The notes under the pieces were generated by a model. The model did no database searches, was not told the DNA's origin, and saw nothing but the letters and a program-made list of their open reading frames with translations. Positions 1 through 19,276 of a stretch of DNA of 64,000 nucleotides are shown in pieces. The position numbers and the translations under genes were made by a program. Numbering within the stretch: position 1 is the first letter of the stretch; each line of letters starts with the position of its first letter. Location: assembly GCA_964522405.1 (NCBI GenBank), contig CAZFTR010000004.1, positions 22,349 to 86,348 on the forward strand. Direction: 5' to 3'. This DNA comes from an uncultured Gammaproteobacteria bacterium. GTDB lineage: Bacteria > Patescibacteriota > Patescibacteriia > Magasanikbacterales > UBA922.

Positions 1-114
1 AGAAGGTTCATCAATAACTATTCCTTTGTCCTGGGTATATAAAAGTGTGTTTGCAGTACCAAGATCTATACCAATGGCCTTATTTGTGATACTTCCAAAT
101 GAAAATTTAAACAT
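1..114 (-). CDS. mreB: Rod-shape protein MreB, N-terminal fragment (gene continues beyond window start)
   Basis: The reverse-complement of 1-114 translates to MFKFSFGSITNKAIGIDLGTANTLLYTQDKGIVIDEPS, matching the MreB/actin N-terminal phosphate-1 motif (IDLGTANTLIY...GIVLNEPS). Confidence 0.6.
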   Translation of the reverse strand, partial: MFKFSFGSITNKAIGIDLGTANTLLYTQDKGIVIDEPS

Positions 115-146
115 AAAATTTTGTTGCGACAGGCAGCAAAATTAAT

Positions 147-1397
147 CTATTTTAAGCTATCTACTATTTTTCCCAAATCCAATAGACTAGATTGATCACC
201 GGTTCGTTCTTTTATTTCTACTGAATTTTTTTCTAAAGTCTTTGGGCTAATTACAATTCGTTTACTAATTCCAATTAAGTCGCTATCAGAAAATTTCTCA
301 CCAGGCCTAACACCATCTCGATCATCATACAGTACCTCTATACCAGCCTCAAGTAAGCTATTATAGAGCTTATTGGCCTGATCAATGTCTTTTGCTTCCC
401 TGCATAGCGAAACCAAATGCACCTTAAACGGAGAGATAGACTCTGGCCAAACAATACCATTATCGTCAGCAAAAGCTTCCACCACAACACCCATCAAACG
501 TGCTACTCCAATTCCGTAAGAGCCCATCACTACAGTTTGTTTTTGACCATTCTCATCAGTAAAATCTAATCCCAAAGGCTCTGAATATTTGGTTTTCAAA
601 CTAAATATATTTCCTACTTCAGCTGCATTTACTTCTTCTAGATCTTCTTTTTTTAAATTAAGATCTGCAATTACTTCGTCTGAGTAAACTTCTTTGTTAA
701 TAGCTATCTTCTTTGCTCTGTTCAGATAGATTGTATCTTCTCCTGCTTCAACCAAAGTTTGAAATTCATGAGAATATTTTGAGAAAGGTCCACCAGATGA
801 AAAAGTAATATAAGTTAGCTCACCAAGACCAATTTTCTCAAAAATCTTTAGATATGCATCTGAACACTGCTGATAAAATTCCTCATGTTCAGTTTCTGTA
901 CGTGAAAATGAATATAAGTCTTTCATAATAAACTCACGAGTTCTCAAGATTCCACTCTTTGCTCGAGTCTCATTTCTAAGTTTAGTTTGAAATTGATAAG
1001 CGCTAAAAGGAAGATCCTTGTATGAATTTATATATTGTAGCATAGCTCGAGTCATTGGCTCTTCATGACTCCAAGCCAAACCAAGCTGGGTTTTGTTTTT
1101 TAATTCTGTCTTAAACCAAGCATCAACACTTTCCTCTGACCAACGATCAGTTAATTTCCAAATTTCTTGATCCTGAAGAGTAGTCATAAACATCTCTTGA
1201 CCACCAATAGCATTGATTTCCTGACGTATAATATTTTTTATTTTTTCTATAACCCTTAAACCGAGTGGTAGAAAACTATAAACTCCGGCCATTTCCTTGT
1301 GTATAAAACCTGCCCGAGCCAAAAGCTGGGCATTTTTACTAATCTCGTCCTTTGGAGCTTGTTTTACTGTTTTGGTTAATAGTTTGGATTGGCGCAT
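147..1397 (-). CDS. proS: Prolyl-tRNA synthetase, short form without editing domain
   Basis: 416-aa ORF with class II aaRS motifs and clear ProRS-like segments (HEEPMTRAML..., FSAYQFQTKLRNETRAKSGILRTREFIMKDLYSF). Confidence 0.9.
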   Translation of the reverse strand: MRQSKLLTKTVKQAPKDEISKNAQLLARAGFIHKEMAGVYSFLPLGLRVIEKIKNIIRQEINAIGGQEMFMTTLQDQEIWKLTDRWSEESVDAWFKTELKNKTQLGLAWSHEEPMTRAMLQYINSYKDLPFSAYQFQTKLRNETRAKSGILRTREFIMKDLYSFSRTETEHEEFYQQCSDAYLKIFEKIGLGELTYITFSSGGPFSKYSHEFQTLVEAGEDTIYLNRAKKIAINKEVYSDEVIADLNLKKEDLEEVNAAEVGNIFSLKTKYSEPLGLDFTDENGQKQTVVMGSYGIGVARLMGVVVEAFADDNGIVWPESISPFKVHLVSLCREAKDIDQANKLYNSLLEAGIEVLYDDRDGVRPGEKFSDSDLIGISKRIVISPKTLEKNSVEIKERTGDQSSLLDLGKIVDSLK

Positions 1398-1424
1398 ACA
1401 AAATCTCTAGATTTAAAAATGATT

Positions 1425-1835
1425 TTAATCATTATCGCTAAGAACAAAACTGTCCTGCTTGTTTTTAAGGGTTGCTTTAAATGATATTACTAAAATAAAA
1501 ATAAAAAATAATAGACCAAAATTCCAAATACTTAACCAATCCTTAATCTGTAAATAAAGCACAATAGTAAAAAAAATAGAAACAAAAACAGAATCTCTAA
1601 AACTCAGACTAACGTATTTGAATAAGGGCATGGCCTGTTTGGAAAAAAACTTATGAGCAAAGAAGAGTAATACTGAACTTATTCCAAGTACACTGAAAAA
1701 AACCGTTGAATAGAAAAAAGCAAAGGTTAAATTGGTTCCCTGATAAGGATCAACATTGGATATAACAAAAAACAAAGCACTTATGCAAAGCAATGTTGCC
1801 AGTCCCATTGTAAGTAAATATTGCTTTAAATTCAT
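1425..1835 (-). CDS. Hypothetical polytopic membrane protein
   Basis: 136-aa ORF with about four hydrophobic helices and host-like A+T-rich codon usage. Confidence 0.45.
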   Translation of the reverse strand: MNLKQYLLTMGLATLLCISALFFVISNVDPYQGTNLTFAFFYSTVFFSVLGISSVLLFFAHKFFSKQAMPLFKYVSLSFRDSVFVSIFFTIVLYLQIKDWLSIWNFGLLFFIFILVISFKATLKNKQDSFVLSDND

Positions 1836-1899
1836 AAAAAACAGCTTTTAGCTGTAGTGTAAGTTTACCTTGATCCTAATTATTTTGCAAGAGGATATT

Positions 1900-2232
1900 T
1901 TAGAGTAAATATCGTATTCGATCTACTTCATTTTTGCCTAATTTATCATTAACTTTTTGTACTATTGCTGACTGATTAAGACGAATCTCCTGAGCCATAC
2001 TTGAGCTGGTACAGCTTATAGTTAAAGTTCTATTTTTCAAAAAAAGCGGTTTAGCGTATATAGCTAAATCTGAACCAAACATCTCCTCCAGAACTTCTGT
2101 AGCAACCTCAATAATCTCAGCACTCTCAAGCTGTTTTTTTAATGGTGAATTTTTTCCGATTTTGTCATGCAAGGCATCACCAAGAGGAGTAAAACCCATA
2201 TGGTCTTCAAATAAATCAGTAAGAAAAATCAA
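1900..2232 (-). CDS. DciA/DUF721-like protein
   Basis: C-terminal segment TLTISCTSSSMAQEIRLNQSAIVQKVNDKLGKNEVDRIRY follows the DciA/DUF721 pattern (TLLVAVDSPVWLHQLNFMKREIL...IRFRLG). The true start may be the internal Met near 2199. Confidence 0.4.
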   Translation of the reverse strand: MIFLTDLFEDHMGFTPLGDALHDKIGKNSPLKKQLESAEIIEVATEVLEEMFGSDLAIYAKPLFLKNRTLTISCTSSSMAQEIRLNQSAIVQKVNDKLGKNEVDRIRYLL

Positions 2233-2297
2233 TTCAACAGTCTATAAAAAACTAAACTGCTCCATCCTAATATTTGAAATTTGCTGTACCAAAATTA

Positions 2298-2951
2298 TTA
2301 AACTCGATATAGATATACTTTACCATGTTTTTTTTCAAATTTCCAATTTGGAAAGGTAAAATCGTAAGAAACAACCACTGATCCCGGTTTCATTTCCTTT
2401 TTTATTTTTTTAGCTAATTTATCCATTTTGTGAGGAATAAAAAACAAAGTAGCCACATCAAACTTGGAAAAACTATATTTCCAAAAATTTTTTCTAATTA
2501 TTTTACCTTTTTTTCTACATTTGGCTGCAACTCTGGACTTGCTAAGCCAATAAAGATAAGGTTGTATTTCAATTCCAACGGCACTGGCACCTCTTGCTGC
2601 CGCAGCACAAACTATCCTACCATCCCCCGAGCCCACATCCAATACTGTCTTTGCTTCATCGACTTCTGCCAGATCTAACATCTCCTCCACGATTTCAATA
2701 GGTGTGCTGGCAAATGGAGCGCCACTGGCCGTTGCCTGAATTTTGAAAAATAAGATATAGAGCAATATCAATAGAAAAACAAAGAAAAGCAATATCAATA
2801 AAACAATAACAAGAAAAATTATAAAATCCTTGCTTTTAATATAAAAAAAGGCCATTCCCACTAGTAGTAAAATATCAACTAAGAGCAGAGTAAAAATTGC
2901 AATAGGTGCGTTGCTGGCTATTTTATTATCTGAAAAAAGTTTCTTTAGCAT
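2298..2951 (-). CDS. Membrane-anchored class I SAM-dependent methyltransferase (paralog 1)
   Basis: Two N-terminal TM helices followed by SAM-binding motif I (VLDVGSGDGRIV). The C-terminus (KKEMKPGSVVVSYDFTFPNW) is shared with the adjacent paralog. Confidence 0.6.
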   Translation of the reverse strand: MLKKLFSDNKIASNAPIAIFTLLLVDILLLVGMAFFYIKSKDFIIFLVIVLLILLFFVFLLILLYILFFKIQATASGAPFASTPIEIVEEMLDLAEVDEAKTVLDVGSGDGRIVCAAAARGASAVGIEIQPYLYWLSKSRVAAKCRKKGKIIRKNFWKYSFSKFDVATLFFIPHKMDKLAKKIKKEMKPGSVVVSYDFTFPNWKFEKKHGKVYLYRV

Positions 2952-2953
2952 AT

Positions 2954-3463
2954 TTAAACAATGTACAGCCTTATATTATCATCTTTTTGCTCAGCTTCCC
3001 AGTCTGGGAAGATAAAGCAATGCGAAACAATGCGAGATCCTGGTTTCATTTCTTTTTTAATCTTCTGCATAAGTTTATCCATTTTATTTGAAATAAAATA
3101 AATAAATAGTACATCAACCTCACTTAAATCTGTTTTCCAAAGATCCTCTCTAATTATCTGGGTATTTTTGGAGCCAATAAGTCGCAATCGACTATACCAG
3201 GATAAAATCGGATTAATTTCAACACCAATTGCTTTTTTAACAATAGCCTTAGTCTTTCTAATAACTCTACCATCTCCAGAACCAAGATCCATGAGTATAT
3301 CAGTCTTTCTCAGTTCAGCAATTTTAATCATTTTTTCAAGTTTTTTTGAAAGAGTGGGCACATATGGAGCAGCTTTCACAACAGCAAAGACAGTATATAT
3401 CATAAATACTGCAATAATTATCAATAGAATTGTACCAAAACTAAGTACTAATAAACTTTCCAT
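2954..3463 (-). CDS. Membrane-anchored class I SAM-dependent methyltransferase (paralog 2)
   Basis: One TM helix followed by motif I (ILMDLGSGDGRVI). The C-terminus (KKEMKPGSRIVSHCFIFPDW) is homologous to 2298..2951, so this is a tandem duplication. Confidence 0.6.
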   Translation of the reverse strand: MESLLVLSFGTILLIIIAVFMIYTVFAVVKAAPYVPTLSKKLEKMIKIAELRKTDILMDLGSGDGRVIRKTKAIVKKAIGVEINPILSWYSRLRLIGSKNTQIIREDLWKTDLSEVDVLFIYFISNKMDKLMQKIKKEMKPGSRIVSHCFIFPDWEAEQKDDNIRLYIV

Positions 3464-3505
3464 AAATACTAAATTAGTTGACAGTTAAATCATTAGTTGG
3501 TTAAA

Positions 3506-3533
3506 TTTACAGTATTGCATTTGCAATTTTAAT
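3506..3533 (+). promoter_or_regulatory. Candidate promoter of GC island A (TTTACA-N16-TTTAAT)
   Basis: The hexamers sit directly upstream of the purine-rich tract AAGGGGGAAGG (3542-3552) and the GTG at 3555. Confidence 0.3.
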
Positions 3534-3554
3534 CGAACGACAAGGGGGAAGGAC

Positions 3555-3935
3555 GTGCATCGCGCTTTCAGACGTGAGCATTGCTCGGCCATATACCAGG
3601 GTGATATGGAAGTCGATCTCGGTCGTCTCACCCCGAGTGAGAGATTCGGCCTAGACGTCCTGTTGCGCCTGTTTCGTGGTCGGATCAAGATGAAGGATAC
3701 GGGCATGGGAAATTCAGCATTGGTCTTCCGCCTCTCGGAACTCCGCTGCAGAATGAACTCGAGAGGGCCGGATCTACAGGATCTGACCGTGGAGACAGGT
3801 CTGAACGGTCACATCACACTCTCGACCGGTGATCCGGAATCGGCTCATCGGATGCGCGTGGACTTCAGCGAACCGCCACCGGACGGCGATCATTCGCGCC
3901 ATCGGCGCGTGTTCCCGCCTGACTGGGCCGTGTGA
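3555..3935 (+). CDS. Hypothetical protein encoded in G+C-rich island A
   Basis: 126-aa ORF with GC3-rich codons (CGC, CTC, GAC) in an A+T-rich neighbourhood. An SD-like tract lies upstream, but only 2 nt from the GTG; the internal ATG at 3606 is an alternative start. No recognisable domain. Confidence 0.35.
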   Translation: MHRAFRREHCSAIYQGDMEVDLGRLTPSERFGLDVLLRLFRGRIKMKDTGMGNSALVFRLSELRCRMNSRGPDLQDLTVETGLNGHITLSTGDPESAHRMRVDFSEPPPDGDHSRHRRVFPPDWAV

Positions 3936-3972
3936 GTTACCCACGGTTCTAGTCCTTCGCTGTCCAAGCATC

Positions 3973-4005
3973 GCCCCTGGCGCTGGATTTATCCACGCCA
4001 GGGGT
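3973..4005 (+). terminator. G+C-rich hairpin closing island A
   Basis: CCCCTGGCG-ctggatttatcca-CGCCAGGGG, a perfect 9-bp stem, followed by ttcgccatttatat. Confidence 0.5.
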
Positions 4006-4058
4006 TCGCCATTTATATGGGGTATATAGAGCAACTATGGCACTACTACCAAATACCA

Positions 4059-6998
4059 TTAGACACCAAACTCACAAATATCTCGATAATCACAATAACC
4101 ACAGGAAAATTTACTTGGAGCAGCCTTGAAATCTCGTTCATGTATATTATCAATTAAAGCAACCAATTTATCTCTTAATTTTTCTATTTGTTTATCTTCG
4201 CCAGTAAATTCTGCTTTTATATTATCATTGAGATACCAAAAAGTAAGTGTTCCAACCGGACCAATATTTCGATATTCCGGCAGACTCTGCGCTGCAATTT
4301 GATAAATTAAAAGCTGCTCCTTATCATCAGCAGTTAATTTCTCTTTTGATTTTCCGGTTTTATAATCAATTATATCCAAATTCCCTTCTGAATTCTGATC
4401 AATTCGGTCAATCTTACCACGAAGAAGATAATCCCCTACTTTGATTTTAAAACCACTTTCAATCTTTACTGGAACTGTCCAATTTCCTTCTTGAGCAGCA
4501 TAAAAAACTCGTAATATTTCTTTTCCTTTTTTAAAATAATCCTCTCTTTGTCTTTTTGATTTATACCAATCGCCTATCCAGGATTTCTCATAAATTTCAA
4601 GCAGTTCATCAAGTGATGGTACAGAAACTTGATCAGTTTTTTCTTTTTTGGGAGAGCTATCAAAAAGTGATCCTTGATTGGCACTGTTTAGCTCAACTAC
4701 TCTTTCGTAAAATTTCTGAAGCGTATTATGAATTGTGTTTCCAAAACTAAAGCTTGCACTTCCACGAGCTGGGATTTTTAAAATATGCTGTAATTTATAT
4801 TTATAAGGACAAGTATCATAAGTTTTAACCTGCGAAAAAGAAAAGGCCTTGGGAATTTCATATACAAATTCTGATTTCTCTTGATTGTTTTTGCTTGGTT
4901 CAGATATAACTCCACTCTCCTTACCAACGACTTGATTTCCACTATCTTCAACACCAGTCTCTCCTATAAATCTACTTGCTTTCTTTTTTCTAGCTCCACC
5001 ATAATCTATAGAGCTGACCATAAATAATCTCTTTTTTGCTCGAGTCATGGCAACATAGAACAATCTTCTCTCTTCCTGGATATGTGCATCACCTTCCGGA
5101 AGCTGCTCCCTTACTAATTGATCTGGAATCTGAATATCTCCCCCTCGTCTCCGACTTGGTATACGATCTTCAACCATGTTAACCACAAAAACATACTTGT
5201 ATTCAAGACCTTTGGACTTATGAATGGTCATAATATTAACACTGTCAGGCGTATCAACTGGCTGAAACATAATACCCTGATCTCCAGACTCGATAACTGC
5301 ATTGAAATATTCTACAAAATGAGAAACATTTGAGTCTCCAATTGCAGATTCATATTTATCAAGAAAACCAAAGAATTGCTGAAGCTGATAAATCTGGCGG
5401 ATTACTTTGCCATTTCCTTGATCTTCCTCGTGAGTTAGATACGTTAGATAGCCACTTTTTTCCAAAAAATTAAAAAGTGCACGACTGGTTTTCTCATATC
5501 TGGAATCTTTCATTCCAGAGTGAAGTAAATCAATTACTTTGTCACAAACAGCAATCCCCTCTTTTGAAACTCCAAATTGAGCTGCTCGTTTTAATGCTTC
5601 ATAATAAGTTACACTTTTTTTACCTTTTTGATGGGTTATTTTCTGCAAATCTGATTCTCTAAGCTCAAGAAAGGGCATTTTCAACAATCTAAATATGCCA
5701 TGCTGTTCATGATAATTATTTATAGATCGTAGAAAACTCATGCAATCAAGTACAATTGGCTGGCGATAAAGCCCGGCTGAAGCAATATATTCATAAGGAA
5801 TCTTTGCTGACTCAAGCGCATTTACAAATGGCTCAACATGACTGTTGGCTCGAACCAAAATTGCAAAATCATCCCAAACAGCTTCTTTATCCTGCTCTTT
5901 TATCTCAACAATTTTCTCAAGCACTCCTCTAGCCTCATTTTCAAGCTTATCAAAACATAGATGCTGTACTTTTTGAACTTGGTTTTTCTCGCTATTAATT
6001 TTTGAAACTAATTTTTTATCAATTTTCAATTTCTCTTCCAATCTATCTGGATTGTTGTTTTGAATAAGCTCATAAGCTGAATCAAGAATCTCCTGAGCTG
6101 AGCGATAATTTTCAGTTAAAACAATTTCTTTGGCTTTTGGATAATCATCTTTGAAACGCATGATATTACTAACACTGGCTCCACGAAAGGCATAGACACT
6201 CTGATCATCGTCACCTACCACAGTTAATTTTGAATTTTCAGCCAGTAATTTAACAAATTCGTACTGAGCATAATTAACATCTTGAAATTCATCTACCAGA
6301 ATATACTTATATTGATTTTGTAATTGCTTTTTAATATTTTCTCTATCTTGTAAGAGTTTAACTGTATAAAAAATTAGGTCACCAAAATCTAAAGCATTTT
6401 TATCTAATAATAATTGATTGTACCTGTGATAAGCGCTTGCAATTTCAGTAAGTCTGGTTTTTTCATCCATACTTGCTGAATCTTTTTCTAACTTCAATTC
6501 CTCTGCATAATCCAGATATTCTTGCGGTGTGATAAGTTCATCTTTGCATTTTGAAAAATGCTTGAGAAAACCATGAATATTTTTCATTGGATTTCCAAGA
6601 GGTCGATAATAATCCAACTCAAAATCATACAGGTGTTCGCGCATCAAGAGCCAAGCCTCTGTATCTGAAACTAATTTAAATTCATTTGGCAAACCAATAT
6701 TCAAACCATAATGTTCAAGAATTCTTTGGCAAAATCCATGAAAGGTTGAGATTTGCACGTCAGTATAGCCAGTATCAAGTAACTGATCCACTCGCTCTTG
6801 CATCTCATTAGCTGCGTTTTCATTGAAAGCCAGTGCCAAAATTTCTTCTGGTTTAGCCAGACCCCTTTTTACAATATCTGCAATTTTTTCAGTAATTACA
6901 GTGGTTTTTCCAGTTCCTGCTCCGGCAATAATAAGGAGTGGACCGTCATGGTATTCAACAGCTTGTTTTTGTGATTTGTTTAGCGATTTTTCAGCCAT
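4059..6998 (-). CDS. UvrD/PcrA-family helicase fused to a C-terminal RecB/Cas4-like nuclease domain with Cys cluster (AddA-like)
   Basis: Walker A AGAGTGKTT, the UvrD motifs and C-terminal CGYCDYRDIC. Confidence 0.85.
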   Translation of the reverse strand: MAEKSLNKSQKQAVEYHDGPLLIIAGAGTGKTTVITEKIADIVKRGLAKPEEILALAFNENAANEMQERVDQLLDTGYTDVQISTFHGFCQRILEHYGLNIGLPNEFKLVSDTEAWLLMREHLYDFELDYYRPLGNPMKNIHGFLKHFSKCKDELITPQEYLDYAEELKLEKDSASMDEKTRLTEIASAYHRYNQLLLDKNALDFGDLIFYTVKLLQDRENIKKQLQNQYKYILVDEFQDVNYAQYEFVKLLAENSKLTVVGDDDQSVYAFRGASVSNIMRFKDDYPKAKEIVLTENYRSAQEILDSAYELIQNNNPDRLEEKLKIDKKLVSKINSEKNQVQKVQHLCFDKLENEARGVLEKIVEIKEQDKEAVWDDFAILVRANSHVEPFVNALESAKIPYEYIASAGLYRQPIVLDCMSFLRSINNYHEQHGIFRLLKMPFLELRESDLQKITHQKGKKSVTYYEALKRAAQFGVSKEGIAVCDKVIDLLHSGMKDSRYEKTSRALFNFLEKSGYLTYLTHEEDQGNGKVIRQIYQLQQFFGFLDKYESAIGDSNVSHFVEYFNAVIESGDQGIMFQPVDTPDSVNIMTIHKSKGLEYKYVFVVNMVEDRIPSRRRGGDIQIPDQLVREQLPEGDAHIQEERRLFYVAMTRAKKRLFMVSSIDYGGARKKKASRFIGETGVEDSGNQVVGKESGVISEPSKNNQEKSEFVYEIPKAFSFSQVKTYDTCPYKYKLQHILKIPARGSASFSFGNTIHNTLQKFYERVVELNSANQGSLFDSSPKKEKTDQVSVPSLDELLEIYEKSWIGDWYKSKRQREDYFKKGKEILRVFYAAQEGNWTVPVKIESGFKIKVGDYLLRGKIDRIDQNSEGNLDIIDYKTGKSKEKLTADDKEQLLIYQIAAQSLPEYRNIGPVGTLTFWYLNDNIKAEFTGEDKQIEKLRDKLVALIDNIHERDFKAAPSKFSCGYCDYRDICEFGV

Positions 6999-7095
6999 AT
7001 TCTCTACTTTATATGTTTAATTGTAGCAGATAGAAGAGCAGGAATCAAAAACTGCTTTTTTATAACTTAAATTAGCCAAATTTAATTAAGAAATA

Positions 7096-7124
7096 TTGAC
7101 AAAAGCACTAAAATATGCTATACT
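7096..7124 (+). promoter_or_regulatory. Consensus sigma70-type promoter of island B (TTGACA-N17-TATACT)
   Basis: TTGACA at 7096-7101, a 17-nt spacer, then TATACT at 7119-7124. Confidence 0.5.
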
Positions 7125-7148
7125 TTTTTGTTCGTTCGTCAAAGGAAA

Positions 7149-7661
7149 ATGCTAGTGAACAGATCAGATCGCGGCTGGACTGCCGCCTTCACGGTCGGGA
7201 GCTTGCTCCTGATCGCGATGCTCGTTGTGGACTACACGGTTCATGACCTTAAAATGAGAGAGCTGCACCAGGCCGTCGTCACGGACTTCGACGAGTTGGT
7301 GCCGGGCATGTGCTACGGCATGGAGATCGAGAGCGGCAAGTTCCAGGTGGTCTGCATCCACCAGTCGCGGAACTGCCCGGACCCCAAGTCCGACGACTAC
7401 GGCGTGGTCAAGCCAAGCGAGTGCCGCCTCGAACGCCCCGAATGCATCGAGTCGGCCAAGGTCACCGAGTTCGGCGCCCTGCAGTACCCTCAGTGGGTGG
7501 TGGTTGGCGAGAGCTACGAGATCTCGGGAAGCCGCCACACCCTCGACCTCGACGACCAGGACTACTGCGTGTTCACGCCCCACAAGTGGCCTGAGCCGTC
7601 CGACGAGTGGGAGTGGCAGGACGTCATCGAGGACACCGGGGACTCCCCCGACGCGCAATAG
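7149..7661 (+). CDS. Hypothetical signal-anchored Cys-containing protein with acidic C-terminus (G+C-rich island B)
   Basis: AAAGGAAA SD at 7141-7148, then ATG 7149 or GTG 7155 (the ORF-track TTG at 7128 has no SD). Contains an N-terminal TM helix (WTAAFTVGSLLLIAMLVV) and six Cys, with GC3-rich codons. Confidence 0.45.
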   Translation: MLVNRSDRGWTAAFTVGSLLLIAMLVVDYTVHDLKMRELHQAVVTDFDELVPGMCYGMEIESGKFQVVCIHQSRNCPDPKSDDYGVVKPSECRLERPECIESAKVTEFGALQYPQWVVVGESYEISGSRHTLDLDDQDYCVFTPHKWPEPSDEWEWQDVIEDTGDSPDAQ

Positions 7662-7792
7662 CGCAATCCGGCATCCTGCCGGGGCAGCGCGAGATGTGCG
7701 AGATTTTGACGACGAACGACGCCGCCCATCCCGAACTGCTTGAGCATCTAAAATCTGGAAATTCAAGCGGAGGCGGGATGTGCCGCTTAATT

Positions 7793-7827
7793 TAAAAATC
7801 CTACTCATTGTAGGATTTTTATTTTGT
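7793..7827 (+). terminator. Rho-independent terminator of island B
   Basis: AAAATCCTAC-tcatt-GTAGGATTTT followed by TATTTT. Confidence 0.6.
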
Positions 7828-7836
7828 ATGAATTTG

Positions 7837-8601
7837 TTATCTTCTAGTATCTTCTCCGAGTAAAACTCTATCTACGAATTTCTTTATAAGTGAATTGGAG
7901 TCTGGTGTTGGCTTGGCATTTTCAGCAATTTGTCTAAGCTCTTCTGCTGCTGATTCATCAGAATAATACCTGTCTACATATCTGGTAATTCTAGCTATCA
8001 GGTCTTGATCATCCACTTCTGGATGAAACTGTGTTGCATAAAACGGCTTGTCTTTTAGCTTTATGGCATGGATCGGACATTTCTCACTCGAAGCCAGAAG
8101 TATAGCTCCATCTGGAATTGACTCTGCCCTCTCCCTATGACCTGACACTGCTTGAAAACCATCTGGAATATCATGAAAAAGTAAATCTTTGTTAGCTTCT
8201 TCTGTTTTCTTGATTGGATAGGTACCCATTTCCATATTTTCTTCATCAACAATAACTTTTTTTCCAAGAGCTTCGGTAACACACTGAAAACCAAAACAAG
8301 AAGCAAAAACCGGAATTGAATTATCTGCACAATATTTTATTAATTTTTTGGAAGACTCTACAAATGGATATTTCTCCGGTTGAATAACTGAAGCATCACT
8401 TGAGCCACCAACAAAAAGTGCATCATAACCAGCGATAATATCTGATTCAAATTCTGGAGTATCAAAAACATTCAAAATAGTGAATTGATTTTTATCTAAT
8501 TCACTATACCTAACAAATTCTTCAAATTCTTCATTCTTTGTTACTTCATCATCACGAATTTGCATGTATAGAATTTTTAAATCTCCTCTTTTTTTATTCA
8601 T
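7837..8601 (-). CDS. Class I glutamine amidotransferase-like protein
   Basis: Catalytic Cys in SCFGFQ and His in QFHPE, a GATase1 signature, with a ~60-aa C-terminal extension. Confidence 0.7.
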   Translation of the reverse strand: MNKKRGDLKILYMQIRDDEVTKNEEFEEFVRYSELDKNQFTILNVFDTPEFESDIIAGYDALFVGGSSDASVIQPEKYPFVESSKKLIKYCADNSIPVFASCFGFQCVTEALGKKVIVDEENMEMGTYPIKKTEEANKDLLFHDIPDGFQAVSGHRERAESIPDGAILLASSEKCPIHAIKLKDKPFYATQFHPEVDDQDLIARITRYVDRYYSDESAAEELRQIAENAKPTPDSNSLIKKFVDRVLLGEDTRR

Positions 8602-8616
8602 ATTTTTGACATTAAT

Positions 8617-8646
8617 AAACCCCGCTTTTTGCGGGGTCTTTTTTAT
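8617..8646. terminator. Bidirectional intrinsic terminator
   Basis: AAACCCCGC-ttttt-GCGGGGTCT with T-runs on both strands, between two minus-strand genes. Confidence 0.6.
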
Positions 8647-8791
8647 TTAGGTAGAGTTATGATTTAGACACCGCAAAATTATCATGGTTGACCACCACTA
8701 CAGTCAGGTTCAGAATAATACTATTTTTAGCTAAATTCATATTATATTCAGATTATCAGAGATTAACTTAGCTGTCAAATTATGACTAAAT

Positions 8792-10552
8792 TTAAGGAAT
8801 AAACCCACCTGCCTGCAAGTCCCAGAGCTTCTTGTAAAGCCCATTTTTGCGTTTTAAGAGTTGCTGATGCGAACCTTGTTCAACTATATCACCTTGATCA
8901 ATTAAAATGATTCTGTCCATTCTCATAATGGTTGAAAGTCGATGAGCAATTACAATAACTGTTTTATCTTTCATCAGCTTATTCAATGCATCCTGGATCA
9001 GCATCTCTGATTCTGAATCAAGACTAGATGTAGCTTCATCAAGAATAAGTATTGGAGAATTACTAAGTATTGCTCGAGCAATTGCTACTCTCTGACGCTC
9101 ACCACCAGATAATTTAACACCTCTTTCACCAACAAAGGTTTGGTACTTTTCTGGAAGAGAATCAATAAATTCATGACAATGCGCAGCTTTTGCAGCTTCT
9201 ATGACTTCTTCATCAGTGGCTTCTGGTTTTCCATATCGTATATTCTCCATCAAAGTTCTATGAAAGAGAATTGGGTCTTGTGGAACCATGCTAATTGCTC
9301 TATGAAGTGAATCCTGAGTGATTTTTCTAATATTTTGACCATCAATATTTACCTTACCTTTTGCTGGGTCAATTAATCTGAGTAGTAATTTAACAACAGT
9401 TGATTTTCCTGCCCCACTTGGACCGACTAATGCAATTCTCTCCCCTGCCTTAATTTTGAAATTAAGATTCTTGATAATTGATCTGGTTTGATGATAATTA
9501 AATCGCACTGATTCAAATTCTATCTTTCCTTTTTTAACTTCAAGTTCTTTGGCATTATAAGCATCTCGCACCTTGTGAGGAGTATCAAAAATTTCAGTCA
9601 TTTCTTCGGCATCAGCAAGTGCTTCATAGTATTTTCGGATAATTCTTCCAAAATTCCAGAGCTTCATAAATATTGCGATCAAATATGCTTGGATCAAAAC
9701 AAAATCACCAATTGTAATTATCCCCTGATTCCAGAGCTTAATTGCTATATAGAAAATGACAAACTCAAGAATAATCATCAGCAATGTCTGAACTGCTTCG
9801 AATCCTGTAGCAAGATCCCAACAAAATCTTCTTATTTTGCGTAATTCATCTGTAATTTTTTTGAATCTAAGACCTTCACGTTCATACCCAGCAAATAACT
9901 TGATAGTAGAATAATTTGTAATTGAATCTGCAAGAACACCAGTTGTTTTTGAATCCATCTCACTGCGTTGAACATCAAATTTTAACTTATACCTAGAGAA
10001 TAAAAAATTAGTAAAACAATAAATAAAAATCCAAACCAAAATAAATATTCCAAGAGCAGAATTTCTCCTCCACAGAATAATATTGATAAGACCTATTTCC
10101 ATGATGATCGGCAAAAGTTCCCAACTTATAATATCTGCAAGAGTTTCAAAGGCGCGATAAAATCTATTTACTTTCTTGACTAGTGAACCTACAAAATTTC
10201 CTTCAAAAAAACCAATAGCATGTTTGTGCATGTATGCAAAACAGGTATTTGGCAAATCAGCCATGATATGAGTCTGAAAATATGAGTTCAAAAAAGCTGC
10301 TCCACGCCAAAAAATCCAACCAATCAAATGGATAATAACTACTTTTATTAAAATTCCGATTAAGACATCTGAATTTGCTCCACTATTTAAATCATCAAAA
10401 AATTGTTTATAAAAAAGAGGCGCAATTACATTTGTAATAGAAGCTAGTATAATAAACAAGACAGTGAAAAAACCTGACTTTTTATACTTGAGCACATGTT
10501 GCCAATAAATTTTTACAGTAAGTTTTTTCCTATATTTCATAAAACTTGGCAC
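8792..10552 (-). CDS. ABC transporter, fused permease/ATP-binding exporter (MsbA-like)
   Basis: Six TM helices, then Walker A GPSGAGKST, the LSGGERQRVAIARAIL signature and a Walker B. Confidence 0.85.
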   Translation of the reverse strand: MPSFMKYRKKLTVKIYWQHVLKYKKSGFFTVLFIILASITNVIAPLFYKQFFDDLNSGANSDVLIGILIKVVIIHLIGWIFWRGAAFLNSYFQTHIMADLPNTCFAYMHKHAIGFFEGNFVGSLVKKVNRFYRAFETLADIISWELLPIIMEIGLINIILWRRNSALGIFILVWIFIYCFTNFLFSRYKLKFDVQRSEMDSKTTGVLADSITNYSTIKLFAGYEREGLRFKKITDELRKIRRFCWDLATGFEAVQTLLMIILEFVIFYIAIKLWNQGIITIGDFVLIQAYLIAIFMKLWNFGRIIRKYYEALADAEEMTEIFDTPHKVRDAYNAKELEVKKGKIEFESVRFNYHQTRSIIKNLNFKIKAGERIALVGPSGAGKSTVVKLLLRLIDPAKGKVNIDGQNIRKITQDSLHRAISMVPQDPILFHRTLMENIRYGKPEATDEEVIEAAKAAHCHEFIDSLPEKYQTFVGERGVKLSGGERQRVAIARAILSNSPILILDEATSSLDSESEMLIQDALNKLMKDKTVIVIAHRLSTIMRMDRIILIDQGDIVEQGSHQQLLKRKNGLYKKLWDLQAGGFIP

Positions 10553-10670
10553 GTTTAAACTTGAACAAAATACCCAGTTTAGGTGCTAGGTCTACTAATG
10601 AAGACGTAAAATTCGAAATTTTGTTACAAAATTAACAGAAATTACCAAATTATCCCATAAAATCTCAACC

Positions 10671-10696
10671 AAAAAACCGGCTTATGCCGGTTTTTT
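10671..10696. terminator. Bidirectional intrinsic terminator
   Basis: AAAAAACCGGC-ttat-GCCGGTTTTTT. Confidence 0.6.
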
Positions 10697-10706
10697 GGAG
10701 TCAATT

Positions 10707-10886
10707 CTATTCTGCTGGATCTACTGGAGTTTCTCCCCCACCTTCTGGCATTGGAGCTACTTGCTCTCCACCTGCTTGAGTAGACATTTCTCCGCTTCCA
10801 CATGAGCATGTGCTACAAGCTGAACATCCACCACACTCCATGCATGCTGGACCGCTACAACTTGCGCAAGTCTTTAATTCTTCCAT
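10707..10886 (-). CDS. Small Cys-rich (metallothionein-like) protein, not present in the supplied ORF track (59 aa)
   Basis: The reverse-complement translates to MEELKTCASCSGPACMECGGCSACSTCSCGSGEMSTQAGGEQVAPMPEGGGETPVDPAE, with 10 Cys in the first 30 residues. A terminator lies immediately downstream. Confidence 0.45.
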   Translation of the reverse strand: MEELKTCASCSGPACMECGGCSACSTCSCGSGEMSTQAGGEQVAPMPEGGGETPVDPAE

Positions 10887-10965
10887 AGAAAAATTAAGGT
10901 TAAAAATATGTAATAAAGTATAGATTAGAAAAAACCTTTCGTCAAATTTGGATAAATTTCCTTTG

Positions 10966-10999
10966 CTGCACCCGAATCGCCGAAGCGAGACGGGTGCAG
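10966..10999 (-). terminator. Hairpin at the 3' end of the island C gene
   Basis: CTGCACCCG-aatcgccgaagcgagac-GGGTGCAG, a 9-bp G+C-rich stem. Confidence 0.4.
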
Positions 11000-11048
11000 C
11001 GTGAATCAGTAAAAAATCCTGGTGAAAAACCCGGTAGGACCTCGAGTT

Positions 11049-11354
11049 CTAGATGAAGTCGTGCTTGCGACACTTGCGCACCATGTGCAGCGCGCCGTCG
11101 ATGCGCATTGCCGGAATGCCGAGCGCGTAACGCACAACCTTACAGCCGACTTCGCCCAACTGCTCGTAGGCGAGAGCGATCCTGCTCTCCTGACCAAAGA
11201 TCCACTTCACAGCCGAGCACTCGAGAGCAGTGACCCTCTCATTCGCCGTCCCGATGGCCATGATTCCGTCGAGCGTCAACTCTCCGATGACCACAGCGCA
11301 GTCTTGAACCACCAGCTCGCCCATGAACAGAGCACTTCCCAATACTTCTTTCAT
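11049..11354 (-). CDS. Hypothetical protein of G+C-rich island C (101 aa, begins MKEVLGSALFMGELVV...)
   Basis: ATG at 11354 is preceded by GGGGGG and by TTGACA-N16-TATTAT. The longer track start at 11369 lies upstream of the SD. GC3-rich codons. Confidence 0.45.
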   Translation of the reverse strand: MKEVLGSALFMGELVVQDCAVVIGELTLDGIMAIGTANERVTALECSAVKWIFGQESRIALAYEQLGEVGCKVVRYALGIPAMRIDGALHMVRKCRKHDFI

Positions 11355-11385
11355 TGGCCCCCCGACCAATTATTGATCCAGGGAA

Positions 11386-11413
11386 ATAATAGCTCATTTA
11401 TATTTATTGTCAA
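11386..11413 (-). promoter_or_regulatory. Consensus promoter of the island C gene (TTGACA-N16-TATTAT, read on the minus strand)
   Basis: -35 at 11408-11413 and -10 at 11386-11391 (reverse-complement). Confidence 0.45.
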
Positions 11414-11437
11414 CCCTGGCGTTCGCGAACGCCAGGG
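11414..11437. repeat. Perfect 24-bp palindrome CCCTGGCGTTCGCGAACGCCAGGG abutting the island C promoter
   Basis: It shares the CCCTGGCG/CGCCAGGG stem with the island A hairpin and the CGTTCGCG core with the island E palindrome. Confidence 0.6.
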
Positions 11438-11518
11438 TGAACCGAGCAGAAGACAGTACTGAGTCAAAATTAAAAAACTGCCCAAGTGGACAGTTTTTTA
11501 GAAGTAATTCTTCTTTAG

Positions 11519-12823
11519 CTAAATTGCTTCACCTAGGGGTTTGGGCTTTTCTCCTGTTTCTTTCATTACTCCCTTCTCAAACAAAATTGCACCAAGAACA
11601 GTCACAAGAATAACACCAAGAAGTGCAGCTGCTGCCATAGTTTCACTGAGTACATTGTTGGCAATTGCAACTGCTACGAAAACTAAACCAACTTCACCAC
11701 GAATTGACATTGCATAACCAACAAGTTTTCCTTCGTTGCGGTCCTTGAATAAATATTTAACAATATATTTTCCATAGAATCCAAGAACTGTAAATATAAT
11801 TGCATAAATCCAAGCTTTTGGAGACATAATTGCTTCACGGGTAAGCATGGTTCCAATACTTACCAGGAATCCACCAACAAAGATATGTATATATCCCTCG
11901 ATCTTTTCCCAAACTTCATGTTTGATCTCATTATCAACTTTTGAAAGTACCACACCAATACCAAAGGCACCAAGAACAGGCTCAAGACCAACCACAGCTG
12001 CAAGTGCTCCAGCAATAATCAAGGCACCAAAGAAAAATCTAGTATAAGGCCCTGTTGTAGTTTTTACGTAATGCTTATCAAGATATTTGGCAATCTTATC
12101 AGCAACACCCATACTCCACATTAGATAAGCTCCACCAAAGAAAGCAAGAACAGCAATAGCAAGCCAGATAAGACTCATAGCTTCTAGGTGACCTTGAGAT
12201 AATTTTGCAAGCACAGTTAGAACCAGCACACCAAGAATATCATCAATCACAGCAGCCCCAACAATTCTGTTTCCCATGTTTGTACTAAGTTTTCCAGCAG
12301 CTTTTAGAGCTTCTACTGAAAGACCAACTGATGTTGCTGTGAAAATACCACCCAAGAAAATAGCCGGAAGCCATTCCATACCAAGAGCATAATGTCCTAG
12401 AAGCGCAAAAGTAACCAATGGAATAAAGACACCACCAAAAGCAACCAGACTGGCAATCCCAATATTTTTCTTGAGAAGTTCCATGTCAAAATGAAGTCCA
12501 GCTTCAAATAAAATAAAAAGCACACCAGCTAGGCGAGCAATTTCAACTCCGTGAGCATATGGATCAAGAACACCCATAGCTGCAGGACCAGCAATAATAC
12601 CCATTACAATCTTACCTGCCATTGGTGCAATACCAAATACTTTGGCAAGTCTTCCACCAAAAGATGCAAAAACAGCAAGAAATGCAATATCAATCAAAAT
12701 CGGCATGATGGTATTGATCTCATGATGATGACTGTGCAACAAGGCCTCGCGCAAATAGTGCAGACCAATTGCGAATACCACCACTTCTATAGTTAGAAGT
12801 GCTAGTGTCTTCAATTTATTCAT
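11519..12823 (-). CDS. Cation:proton antiporter (CPA2 / Na+/H+ exchanger family)
   Basis: 434 aa with about 12 TM helices; architecture and motifs are Kef/NapA-like. Confidence 0.75.
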   Translation of the reverse strand: MNKLKTLALLTIEVVVFAIGLHYLREALLHSHHHEINTIMPILIDIAFLAVFASFGGRLAKVFGIAPMAGKIVMGIIAGPAAMGVLDPYAHGVEIARLAGVLFILFEAGLHFDMELLKKNIGIASLVAFGGVFIPLVTFALLGHYALGMEWLPAIFLGGIFTATSVGLSVEALKAAGKLSTNMGNRIVGAAVIDDILGVLVLTVLAKLSQGHLEAMSLIWLAIAVLAFFGGAYLMWSMGVADKIAKYLDKHYVKTTTGPYTRFFFGALIIAGALAAVVGLEPVLGAFGIGVVLSKVDNEIKHEVWEKIEGYIHIFVGGFLVSIGTMLTREAIMSPKAWIYAIIFTVLGFYGKYIVKYLFKDRNEGKLVGYAMSIRGEVGLVFVAVAIANNVLSETMAAAALLGVILVTVLGAILFEKGVMKETGEKPKPLGEAI

Positions 12824-13038
12824 AAATTTTTCCTAATTGTCATCCCGAGCGAAATGCTAGAGAGTCAAGAGATCTCCTTTTCAAAGAATATTTTCCTTAA
12901 AAGGGTGATTCCTCCACTCTATTCAAGATAACCTATAAATTATATTAAATTACGACTGCAATATTATACAGTTAAATAGCTTAAAAATCAATACAATTTG
13001 GGGATAAAGCCAAGTTACAAAATTGTGAAAAATGCTGA

Positions 13039-13067
13039 TTTACAAGTAAGTAGAAATATGCTAGGAT
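13039..13067 (+). promoter_or_regulatory. Candidate promoter of island D (TTTACA-N17-TAGGAT)
   Basis: Lies upstream of the GGGAGG SD at 13087-13092. Confidence 0.35.
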
Positions 13068-13102
13068 ATTTCAGTAATCTGGAACCGGGAGGAAAAAACC
13101 GG

Positions 13103-13849
13103 ATGTTTCTTTTGGAATTCACGAAAAAGCACCCCTACCTGGTAATCGCCAGTGTGGCTCTGACCACTCTGCTGATTGCTGCCATGGTGATGATTCAGCA
13201 GAGGATCGATACCAGCAAGGAGCGGATCGCGACTGCATGTCTCGAGAGAATCGCCAACCCCTGCACCTTCTACAAGGTCTCAGACTCGGGCTACACCTGT
13301 GAGAAGTGGCACGTCGCCGACGGCACTGATTGCAAACAGAGCGCCTGCATGACAGGCGACTGTGTCTGCAAGGACGGCAAGCCGACTTCCGACTCCTGGC
13401 GGGACTGCTCTTCGCCGAGCGATCCCTGTCGGGTCGACGTTTGTGTTCCTGACGACGCTGAAGAGCTGGGCTACAGATGCGTGCCCGGGGTGCATGAGGA
13501 CCGGAATCGCAAGATCTGGCTCGATCACAAGCCCGACTTCACCCCCTGCCTGGACGATGGCATCTGCATCGGACGTACCTGCATTGGCCCCGAAGGTCGC
13601 GTGCTGGCTCCACTACCGATCAAGTTCACCGAAACCAAGGCTCGGGACATGCCGACAGGCTTCGAGCTCAATCTCTGCGGGAACTGCCATCGCTACAGCT
13701 ACGACTGGAACTACAGCGGTCCTGTCACCTGTGGCAGCTGCCACCTGGAAGGCGCCGACATGCTCAACCGATCATCCGATAGACTGCTCTGGCATCTCGA
13801 GATCGAGGAAGGGCTGCCGGCCAAAGAGTTCCTGGGGGAGGTGATGTAA
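13103..13849 (+). CDS. Signal-anchored Cys-rich protein with two CxxCH motifs (putative dihaem c-type cytochrome), G+C-rich island D
   Basis: GGGAGG lies 10 nt before the ATG at 13103 (the ORF-track start at 12998 lies in A+T-rich DNA upstream of the SD). One TM helix, then 20+ Cys including CGNCH and CGSCH. GC3-rich codons. Confidence 0.4.
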   Translation: MFLLEFTKKHPYLVIASVALTTLLIAAMVMIQQRIDTSKERIATACLERIANPCTFYKVSDSGYTCEKWHVADGTDCKQSACMTGDCVCKDGKPTSDSWRDCSSPSDPCRVDVCVPDDAEELGYRCVPGVHEDRNRKIWLDHKPDFTPCLDDGICIGRTCIGPEGRVLAPLPIKFTETKARDMPTGFELNLCGNCHRYSYDWNYSGPVTCGSCHLEGADMLNRSSDRLLWHLEIEEGLPAKEFLGEVM

Positions 13850-13978
13850 TGCCGCAGACACGAGCACGAGGGCCACCAAGTAGAGGCGCCGGCACCAGCC
13901 CCGGCGGGAGCATGTCAACTGCTGCTCTGCACCGGCTGGCGACTCTCTTATTATTTTAATTTTAGAATGATGAGAAAG

Positions 13979-14007
13979 AAAAAACTCGCTTATTGCGAGT
14001 TTTTTTA
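13979..14007. terminator. Bidirectional intrinsic terminator (end of the atp operon)
   Basis: AAAAAACTCGC-ttat-TGCGAGTTTTTTT. Confidence 0.6.
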
Positions 14008-14046
14008 AACTATTAACTGTTGTTATCTGTAAACTATCAACAATTT

Positions 14047-14472
14047 TTACTTCCTATACTTCTTCCCCACTCTAATCCTATTCATTTCTCGATCAATAAC
14101 TGCTTGAAGTTTTGCAAAATCAACATTTGATTCTTTTCCAGCTTTTTCCAGCTGTTCTTGTGCACGTTTTCTTGCTGCTTCTGCTCTATCCAGATCAATA
14201 TCCCCTGCTCGCTCTGCGTTGTCTGCAAGAATTATAATTTCACTATTTCCCCGAACTTCCAGAAATCCACCAGCAACTGCTATTGGATGCTCACCATCCT
14301 TATCTTTTATTTTCAATTCTCCAGCTTGTAAAACCGAAATTATTGGAATATGCATTGGAAGAACTGTAATCTCGCCTTCCATTGTTGGAATTGTAACTTG
14401 AAAAATCTCATCTTCGTAAACTACTGATTCAGGTGTTACAATTTTGAATTTTAGGATTTGTTCTTTTTTCAT
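14047..14472 (-). CDS. atpC: F1 ATP synthase epsilon subunit
   Basis: 141 aa; N-terminal beta-sandwich and C-terminal helical hairpin, with conserved epsilon residues. Confidence 0.85.
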   Translation of the reverse strand: MKKEQILKFKIVTPESVVYEDEIFQVTIPTMEGEITVLPMHIPIISVLQAGELKIKDKDGEHPIAVAGGFLEVRGNSEIIILADNAERAGDIDLDRAEAARKRAQEQLEKAGKESNVDFAKLQAVIDREMNRIRVGKKYRK

Positions 14473-14594
14473 TTTTTTATTAAATTGAACTTATTACTGA
14501 ATAGGTAGGTATCTCTCGACTGCGTTTTTCTTTCAGAAAACTTCGCTCGAGATGAGAACCAAGATGTGAAATTTTGATCAATGACCACTCACAG

Positions 14595-16773
<2,179 letters not shown>

Positions 16774-16776
16774 AGA

Positions 16777-17706
16777 CTATAATGCCGCTGCACCTGCTGC
16801 AATCTCCGCAATCTCCTGCGTGATTCCAGCCTGTCTAGCTTTGTTAAAACTTAAAGTTAATTCATCAATCAATTCTCCAGCATTTTCACTGGCATTTTTC
16901 ATTGCTACCATTCTTGCTGAATGTTCTGATGCTGTTGACTCTAGAACTGCCTGCAATAATTGTGATTCAACTAATCTTGGTAAAACATTTTCTATTATTA
17001 CTTTCACATTTGGTTCAAATTCATAGGCATCAATATCTTCTTCTACTTTTTCCTCTTTAGTATTTTTTGCATCTTCACCAATTTCATCTATCATCTTATC
17101 TATATCAACCGAAGAGACTGGCAAAAGTTGTCTAACTTCTGCAACCTGTTCTAAACTCGATTTAAAATTTGTATAAAAAACTACCACTTTATCGTATTTT
17201 TTTTCTTTAAATTCACTAATCATGATCTTTGTAATTGGCAGAATATTTTCCAGGCTTGGTTTTTCACCAATTTCGTCATACATTTGTACAAGATTGTAAC
17301 CGTACCTTTTGGCAAAAATTGCTGACTTCTTACCTACTCCTATCAGATCAATTTCAAGTTCAGCATCTGCATCATCAGCTAAAATTTCTTTATTTGATAA
17401 TGTTTGATGAGCTTTTTTGTATAAGTTTGCATTGAAACTTCCGCAAAGCCCTCTATTTGAACTAACCAAAATTGCTAGGACTTTTTTCACAGGCCTCTCC
17501 TCAAGAAGTTCAACTTTATCCATTTCAATTTTACTAAGACGATCAAGAAGGCCTTTTGCTGTAACTGCATATTCACGTGTTGCAAGTGTGGCATCAACTG
17601 CTCGACGCATCTTTGCAGCAGCAACCATCTCCATTGCTTTGGTGATTTTCTTGGTATTGGTCACGGACTTGATTCGTCCTTTAATTGCTTTTGTATTGAC
17701 TGCCAT
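16777..17706 (-). CDS. atpG: F1 ATP synthase gamma subunit
   Basis: 309 aa with conserved gamma N- and C-terminal helices (...ITQEIAEIAAGAAAL). Confidence 0.9.
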   Translation of the reverse strand: MAVNTKAIKGRIKSVTNTKKITKAMEMVAAAKMRRAVDATLATREYAVTAKGLLDRLSKIEMDKVELLEERPVKKVLAILVSSNRGLCGSFNANLYKKAHQTLSNKEILADDADAELEIDLIGVGKKSAIFAKRYGYNLVQMYDEIGEKPSLENILPITKIMISEFKEKKYDKVVVFYTNFKSSLEQVAEVRQLLPVSSVDIDKMIDEIGEDAKNTKEEKVEEDIDAYEFEPNVKVIIENVLPRLVESQLLQAVLESTASEHSARMVAMKNASENAGELIDELTLSFNKARQAGITQEIAEIAAGAAAL

Positions 17707-17751
17707 ACATTATTAGTGTGTAGTTTATAGTTACTAGTTTATAGATATAAT

Positions 17752-17777: not shown

Positions 17778-17779
17778 AA

Positions 17780-19270: not shown

Positions 19271-19276
19271 ACTTTT

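Follow-up and report, generated by a model that had tools for sequence, protein, structure and literature searches.

A GC-rich orphan gene in the conserved backbone of a Magasanikbacteria chromosome: a candidate phage-moron-like surface-protein gene

Architecture of the island B locus

Island B is a GC-rich tract in a 64,000-nucleotide (nt) stretch of contig CAZFTR010000004.1 (assembly GCA_964522405.1), the whole of which we call the window, and the host is, from its sequence, a Candidatus Magasanikbacteria bacterium belonging to the CPR (candidate phyla radiation; Patescibacteria). The GATase gene and the gene for a PcrA/UvrD-type helicase, a protein of 979 amino acids (aa) with a C-terminal PD-(D/E)xK nuclease domain, lie 838 bp apart in the window, and island B is located between them. 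A two-change-point maximum-likelihood fit delimits 617 bp of 63 % GC at 7170-7786 in surroundings of 32 % GC, the window background being 36 % GC overall; these change points at 7170 and 7786 bear out the compositional anomaly claimed by an earlier note on this DNA (the original prediction). Judging by the features listed here, island B is a real, autonomous and self-contained single-gene transcription unit that reads rightward across window positions 7096-7830. ORF stands for open reading frame.

7096..7124, plus strand: predicted near-consensus sigma-70 promoter (-35 TTGACA at 7096-7101, N17, TG at 7116-7117 forming an extended -10, TATACT at 7119-7124)
7141..7148, plus strand: Shine-Dalgarno-like AAAGGAAA (AAGGA site), of native AT-rich composition
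7149/7155..7661, plus strand: island B ORF (170 aa from ATG 7149, 168 aa from GTG 7155; stop TAG at 7659-7661)
7173..7250, plus strand: segment encoding the N-terminal helix, from hydropathy (WTAAFTVGSLLLIAMLVV after R5 and R8)
7662..7792, plus strand: GC-rich 3' untranslated tail of ~125 nt, with a short hairpin at 7667-7683 and a long imperfect hairpin at 7721-7786 (66 nt)
7694..7795, plus strand: 33-aa ORF of the original prediction, overlapping the 7721-7786 hairpin and running into the terminator stem
7164..7808, minus strand: antisense shadow ORF of 214 aa, annotated by NCBI and Logan and judged spurious
7793..7830, both directions: predicted symmetric intrinsic terminator (12-bp stem 7793-7804/7810-7821, 12/12 complementary, 5-nt loop, T-run to ~7830)

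The promoter lies in DNA of native, AT-rich composition. With the sequence TTGACA-N17-TGcTATACT it scores 11/12, which makes it the highest sigma-70 match in positions 1-20000, and it is the sole carrier of a TG extended -10 among the top matches in these 20 kb; the TTGACA-N17-TATACT promoter named by the original prediction is thus confirmed, with the TG motif added to it. The match also ranks as the best in the whole window, and transcription is predicted to start near 7131. Six matches of 11/12 occur in the 64 kb, as compared to 2.4 +/- 1.6 in dinucleotide shuffles, and half of them (3/6) are positioned directly upstream of GC-rich islands, namely B and the islands C and H described below, while another is upstream of tRNA-Lys; the chance expectation for 11/12 matches in the upstream windows of the islands is ~0.015. 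The exact hexamer pair TTGACA/TATACT has two matches vs 0.06 expected. Its recurrence at island H, which had been pointed out previously, is real, but the spacer there is 16 nt and the match ends at 38418 rather than 38419.

The Shine-Dalgarno site described previously is also present and allows two starts, because AAAGGAAA is 2-3 nt from ATG 7149 and 8 nt from the in-frame GTG 7155. An identical AAGGAAAAT-N4-GTG arrangement is found at island E (about 24447-24460), and this recurrence together with the 8-nt spacing makes GTG 7155, and hence the 168-aa form, the likelier start, a refinement of the earlier reading. At the other end of the unit, the hairpin at 7793-7821 is preceded by an A-run and followed by a T-run, and it follows, after 16 nt, the stop codon (7837-7839, minus strand) of the convergent GATase gene. 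Because it is symmetric and adjoins this stop, we suggest that it is a shared bidirectional terminator that probably pre-existed rather than arriving with the insert. The clean rho-independent terminator of the original prediction therefore stands as a hairpin with a T-run but not as a private one, being common to island B and the GATase gene.

Coding capacity and predicted product

Because GC-rich DNA is open in many frames and an ORF alone is weak evidence, we judged coding capacity by codon-position periodicity. The GC content at first, second and third codon positions (GC1/GC2/GC3) is 0.615/0.385/0.893 over the 169 codons of the sense frame of island B, as compared to 0.518/0.330/0.234 in seven native genes in the window, and it matches the pattern GC3 > GC1 > GC2 that is universal in genes from GC-rich genomes. 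These values strongly support that the plus-strand ORF is a real coding sequence and make a spurious ORF very unlikely, in line with the ~170-aa protein-coding unit claimed at the outset.

Downstream of the stop codon the picture is different. The GC-rich 3' tail has codon phases of 0.49/0.67/0.58 (7662-7790) and is without coding periodicity, and its folding is not significant when the terminator is left out (z = -1.75), as opposed to z = -4.9 when it is included. The 33-aa ORF at 7694-7795 does exist as described earlier, but it has no coding periodicity and overlaps the 3' hairpins, and we reject it as a gene, which it probably is not.

The sense frame would encode an acidic protein with an isoelectric point of 4.35 and a single hydrophobic helix at about residues 9-34 of the 170-aa form (Kyte-Doolittle 19-residue maximum 2.03; windows above 1.6 start only at residues 9-16). 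Six Cys residues at positions 55, 69, 76, 92, 99 and 140, with two C-x6-C pairs among them, are all C-terminal to this helix, and the Trp/Asp/Glu-rich tail KWPEPSDEWEWQDVIEDTGDSPDAQ has nine acidic and one basic residue in the last 25. Thus, the N-terminal transmembrane (TM) helix, the six cysteines in the part beyond it and the strongly acidic tail that had been claimed from the first reading are all borne out. The fraction of Phe, Tyr, Met, Ile, Asn and Lys (FYMINK) is 0.18 in this protein vs 0.31 in native proteins. No AxA or L-x-x-C motif, as expected for signal peptidase or a lipobox, was seen on reading the protein. Based on R5 and R8 in front of one hydrophobic helix and on the lack of either motif, we predict that the product is a Sec-inserted, single-pass signal anchor (type II) with N-in/C-out topology.

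Structure prediction, which the original prediction had suggested as a check, did not yield an assignable fold: AlphaFold2 run without an alignment gave a predicted local distance difference test (pLDDT) score of 43 for the full protein and for the ectodomain, and a helix at residues 8-45 is the sole part of the model at pLDDT 70-80.

The protein is also a complete orphan in the databases and family libraries searched. Among family libraries, Pfam gave a best match of E = 0.19, which is not significant, and PHROGs, NCBIfam and PADLOC gave no match; among PDB sequences the best match, at E = 0.39, is not significant either. Neither a word-seeded search of 5.8 billion clusters nor a full HMMER search against 1.84 billion representatives recovered a homologue. 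At the DNA level, no relative was found in back-translated scans of GTDB species genomes, IMG/VR and JGI metagenomes, by tblastn against phages and plasmids, or by tblastn against 1.2 Mb of related Magasanikbacteria loci. The antisense 214-aa ORF, used as a query in case relatives had been annotated on the wrong strand, found itself only, and the protein of island D, used as a proxy for the class of islands, found only copies of itself. The homologues in G+C-rich taxa for which the original prediction had proposed a search were thus looked for and not found. A missing homologue and a missing confident fold are half of the grounds on which that prediction would have doubted the product, yet the codon-position periodicity argues against a spurious ORF.

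Insertion and possible origin

The gene order AtpD-AtpC-(variable)-ABC transporter-(variable)-helicase-(methyltransferases)-DciA is kept in ~45 Magasanikbacteria loci (numbered with the prefix L). L030 is an empty site, as only 4 nt separate the end of its GATase orthologue (50 % identity) from the ATG of the helicase gene, and in L010, L015 and L036 the helicase is adjoined by the ABC transporter. By gene order, island B is shown to be an insertion relative to these relatives, i.e. additional DNA that occupies a variable slot within a conserved backbone. The same backbone slots hold different GC-rich single genes in L006, L018, L020, L026, L028 and L031; for example, L006 3701-4273, between AtpC and the orthologue of g11519, occupies the slot of island D in the window, and further examples are at L018 7333-7461 and 7806-8348 and at L031 8480-8833. 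The host genome is not a GTDB species representative, and the helicase has its closest relatives, at most 62 % identical, in Candidatus Magasanikbacteria metagenome-assembled genomes (MAGs); because the closest comparators are so distant, the intergenic DNA is unalignable and the insertion junction undatable.

We favor, with moderate confidence, a model whereby island B is a surface-protein gene that a CPR chromosome acquired horizontally and that resembles a phage moron, and we infer that it was transferred from an unsampled GC-rich donor. In this model, ~617 bp of 63 % GC DNA from the donor, comprising the ORF and ~125 nt of downstream non-coding DNA with a hairpin, would have entered a 36 % GC chromosome beside the GATase terminator, in the intergenic stretch that separates the GATase gene from the gene for the PcrA/UvrD-type helicase, and a strong promoter and a ribosome-binding site would have been recruited or would have evolved in the AT-rich flank. 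To judge from these signals, transcription would proceed rightward from the extended -10 sigma-70 promoter in native AT-rich DNA, translation would start at GTG 7155 or ATG 7149 behind the native AAGGA site, and the transcript would end at the bidirectional terminator that the convergent GATase gene already had. The product would be inserted by Sec with N-in/C-out topology and would place an acidic, disulfide-capable ectodomain of ~135 residues with six Cys on the cell surface. Horizontal gene transfer (HGT) has been reported to supply up to 13 % of genome length in Patescibacteria (PMC12455944).

Morons are defined by their own promoter and terminator, by a deviant GC content implying horizontal transfer and by being DNA that is additional to that of relatives (PMC3594210). 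In line with gene 15 of phage HK97, island B adds DNA between two genes that are neighbors in relatives, and it consists of one gene that has a sigma-70 promoter to itself and is followed by a factor-independent terminator. The GC content of morons deviates from that of their neighbors, as does that of island B (63 % vs 32 %; GC3 0.89 vs 0.23), and in both cases related genomes hold non-homologous cargo. Superinfection exclusion is the function of HK97 gp15, a protein of the inner membrane, and the island B product is likewise predicted to be a small membrane protein. The analogy has limits. Unlike a phage moron, island B is in a housekeeping backbone (atp operon, ABC transporter, PcrA-type helicase, DciA) without any PHROG, viral or phage match; its promoter, ribosome-binding site and terminator are native in composition, so that only the ORF and the 3' tail look imported; and its terminator is common to the neighboring GATase gene.

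Island B also resembles horizontally acquired ORFans and genomic islets, including those described for HGT in Patescibacteria (PMC12455944), in having an atypical composition, no homologues, a strain-specific occurrence and a position in an intergenic slot that varies. It differs from ordinary cases in the extreme contrast (GC3 0.89 vs 0.23) and in its size of one gene of 617 bp; moreover, the islands are dense (~nine per 64 kb) and systematically tied to near-consensus promoters, and one related family retains a high GC content through speciation, which amelioration does not predict.

Considering the moron analogy, the architecture of the protein and the episymbiotic lifestyle of CPR bacteria, it is tempting to speculate that island B encodes a strain-specific accessory surface protein that might function in host-cell contact, phage exclusion or competition. 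If the moron-like model is correct, then ultra-small CPR bacteria would decorate a streamlined chromosome with many tiny, independently expressed genes of foreign composition, mostly for surface or membrane proteins that lack detectable relatives, and GC-rich minigenes would be a source of cheap novelty at the cell surface, where the episymbiont meets its host and phages. The weight of island B comes from its public misannotation, from its complete orphan status and from its membership in a dense, partly persistent and apparently undescribed class of GC-rich minigenes. In the literature, we found no description of GC-rich islands in Magasanikbacteria or CPR and none of the SRA runs.

The island class and alternative explanations

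About eight further GC-rich islands (53-68 % GC) are present in the window, which gives the density of ~nine per 64 kb when island B is included; nearly all are in intergenic gaps, with a TTGACA-type promoter before and mostly an AT-rich terminator after. They are listed here with a family of related units from other Magasanikbacteria loci.

~3555-3935, within 3470-4058: island A
~11049-11369, within 10950-11500, minus strand: island C
~13103-13849, within 13030-14010, plus strand: island D, predicted 248-aa signal-anchored protein
~24460-24588, within 24380-24760: island E
~25374-25706, within 25310-25830: island F
~27391-27630: island G, no convincing ORF
~38425-38634, within 38385-38760: island H
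~49841-50059, within 49725-50260: island I
L018 7330-7600, L020 8668-8938, L023 8173-8443 and L039 ~380-760, minus strand: unit with a 42-aa TM peptide (MKKYLI...VRVV...EAPV.PER)

The islands of the window share neither paralogy nor a common sequence, and the proteins of the islands other than B belong to no Pfam or PHROG family. Across the Magasanikbacteria loci, an 11/12 promoter is present within 200 nt of about 10 of the 19 GC-rich ORFs vs 16 of the 507 native ORFs (at least 150 aa).

The 42-aa TM-peptide minigene family is syntenic in L018, L020, L023 and L039. Each unit has a TTGACA-N17-TGCTATACT promoter and a ~110-nt leader with two conserved hairpins supported by some compensatory changes, and the peptide is followed by a second tiny hydrophobic ORF in L018 and L039. 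The unit had no Rfam match, and an exact-pattern metagenome scan for the leader conserved in L018, L020 and L023 found nothing; the unit is a candidate for a new family consisting of a cis-regulatory leader and a small membrane peptide. The family has diverged like the backbone (72 % vs 70-78 % nt identity) and has a GC3 of 0.74-0.83 in genomes with a native GC3 of ~0.30.

Several observations weigh against the model of a recently imported, moron-like gene. The divergence and GC3 of the 42-aa family argue that GC-richness is maintained there through speciation and is not the fading trace of a transfer. An unameliorated GC3 of 0.89 in island B implies a very recent transfer, although neither a donor nor a homologue was found. 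Eight or nine recent, independent and all-orphan acquisitions in 64 kb are many for random uptake. In addition, the left junction of island B is ambiguous, the first five codons being AT-richer than the remaining ORF, and the protein has no confident fold.

These points bear on the alternative that survives best, which we consider possible but unlikely, namely that island B is a minigene specific to the Magasanikbacteria lineage and owes its GC-richness to active maintenance rather than to recent import. Maintenance might come about by selection, either for a stable, structured and RNase-resistant mRNA or for deliberately rare codons, or by local GC-biased mutation or repair in strongly transcribed units; as a fast-evolving member of such a class, island B would have an explanation for its orphan status. 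Consistent with this alternative, the 42-aa family keeps its high GC3 at backbone-level divergence, the GC-rich tract of island B fills the transcribed region almost exactly, from ~+40 to the base of the terminator, very deep searches returned no donor for island B or island D, and there is a tight association between the islands and consensus promoters. On the other side, island B is without a relative in the Magasanikbacteria loci or the databases, so that persistence is not demonstrable for island B itself; its amino acid composition, with the low FYMINK fraction, resembles that of genomes that have long been GC-rich; in highly expressed native genes, for example atpD, third positions are AT-rich; and the conserved example has only 42 codons and is perhaps under RNA-structure constraint. 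Moreover, we know of no mechanism for a local GC bias.

A broader version of this alternative is that Magasanikbacteria, and perhaps other CPR bacteria, keep a class of strongly promoted, monocistronic and persistently GC-rich minigenes, among which island B would evolve rapidly; we regard this generalization as rather doubtful. We are equally hesitant about the suggestion that the products of such a class would for the most part be small orphan proteins that are membrane-bound, secreted or rich in Cys, and it is with the same reserve that we list mRNA stability, deliberate rare-codon use and the tuning of products or transcripts to a partner organism that is GC-rich as possible reasons for a maintained GC content. 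The persistence of a GC3 of ~0.8 in one family vs a native GC3 of ~0.3 challenges the usual picture of amelioration and raises the question of what keeps GC high.

Compared with an import or a maintained minigene, it is much less probable that island B is a GC-rich structured non-coding RNA (ncRNA) with frames that are open merely because GC-rich DNA has few stop codons. GC-rich intergenic regions of AT-rich genomes are a classic ncRNA signature, and island B, a GC-rich block in an intergenic gap behind a strong promoter, resembles ncRNA islands in this respect; frames are open on both strands, neither a homologue nor a fold was found, and at least one other island (G, 27391-27630) is without a coding signal. 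However, the periodicity of 0.62/0.39/0.89 over 169 codons is unexpected for an RNA gene and does not extend into the adjoining 3' tail, the ribosome-binding site and start codon are placed correctly, and the predicted protein is plausible, with a protein-like N-terminal TM helix. Moreover, Rfam gave no match to island B at gathering score and only chance-level matches at E up to 1, and the structure of the tail is not significant.

A slightly lower probability still attaches to the possibility that the 214-aa ORF on the minus strand (7164-7808) is real and the plus-strand ORF its shadow. The minus-strand ORF is the longer of the two and is the one selected by the gene callers of NCBI (94,553-bp contig) and Logan, where it is listed, 100 % identical, as P0005, while the sense protein is not in a 15-billion-protein collection. 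However, its codon phases of 0.89/0.39/0.62 mirror the sense frame and reverse the pattern of GC-rich genes, its ATG is inside the terminator stem, it is without a promoter or ribosome-binding site whereas the plus strand has the 11/12 promoter and AAGGA, and it has no homologue but itself and no family match. In our reading of the codon phases and signals, the public annotation of the antisense ORF is an annotation error. Because AT-trained gene callers pick the wrong strand, true island proteins would be missing from databases, and both the orphan status and the frequency of such genes under-reported. Gene callers also mishandle a second island, in that the NCBI call for island D starts 35 codons too early (283 aa).

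We rate as similarly improbable that island B is a mobile gene cassette at a secondary site, either of the integron type, with an attC-like palindrome 3' of an ORF, or a miniature element with cargo. As in integron cassettes, which often encode secreted or membrane products, a small orphan ORF is followed by an imperfect palindrome, here the 66 nt at 7721-7786, and other islands also have a GC-rich hairpin after the stop codon. Against this idea, neither strand of 7090-7840 contains GTTRRRY/RYYYAAC core sites, terminal repeats, whether inverted or direct, amount to no more than chance AT-rich 10-mers, the hairpins of the islands have no common sequence, and no second copy was found. Unlike integron cassettes, island B has its own promoter and is without an integrase or an array, the islands being single and scattered (the genome outside the window was not examined for an integrase).

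Finally, a chimeric assembly or a binning contaminant, in which GC-rich DNA of another organism was joined to a CPR contig, might be suspected from the extreme and abrupt shift in composition and from the genome being a MAG, but is the least probable explanation of all given that independent Logan assemblies of the runs SRR8146441 (L001, 7.5 kb) and SRR8146440 (L071) match islands A and/or B across both junctions with 100 % identity, that island D with its left junction is present in the Logan assembly of the unrelated run SRR31802802 (L002), that junctions at nine separate places fall in an intergenic gap exactly between a native promoter or ribosome-binding site and a native terminator, and that MAGs of many unrelated studies contain similar islands.

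A diversity-generating retroelement target was considered separately and rejected; no template/variable repeat pair is present, and island B is unrepeated in the 64-kb window.

Other elements in the window and in the related loci deserve mention. The predicted protein of island D has 18 Cys and two CxxCH motifs (LCGNCH and CGSCH) with a weak match to Cytochrome_C7 (E = 0.0084), and it may represent a membrane-anchored, c-type-cytochrome-like orphan in a CPR genome. Island G (53 % GC) is located between methionyl-tRNA-synthetase-like and methyltransferase-like genes; it has no Rfam match and its folding is not significant (z = -0.5). At 10707-10883 on the minus strand, a small gene in a native context, with a TTGACG-N17-TATACT promoter at 10945-10917, encodes a very Cys-rich peptide (MEELKTCASCSGPACMECGGCSACSTCSCGSGEM...) that may be metal-binding or resemble the precursor of a ribosomally synthesized and post-translationally modified peptide.

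In L042, tandem units of ~230 bp at 2641-3180 each combine a terminator-like hairpin with a GC-rich tRNA-like sequence, and the upstream copies carry an insert with the palindrome CCTGCCTGCCGGCAGGCAGG, which is also found in a different genome, in the 3' tail of a GC-rich island in L006 (4310-4330). A GC-rich element of ~360 nt is present in L011 (551-910), L027 (8181-8960) and L037 (8011-8480) with 84-95 % nt identity, far above that of the backbone; it may be a conserved gene or an ncRNA, and the L011 copy had no Rfam match at gathering score. L020 has a second GC-rich island gene at 8017-8517 (plus strand), and its predicted protein of 150-166 aa (...VAVAGDYSFDFGVMCEMAYRSDVPIVLI...) may, judging by its sequence alone, have a nucleoside 2-deoxyribosyltransferase-type or TIR-like fold.

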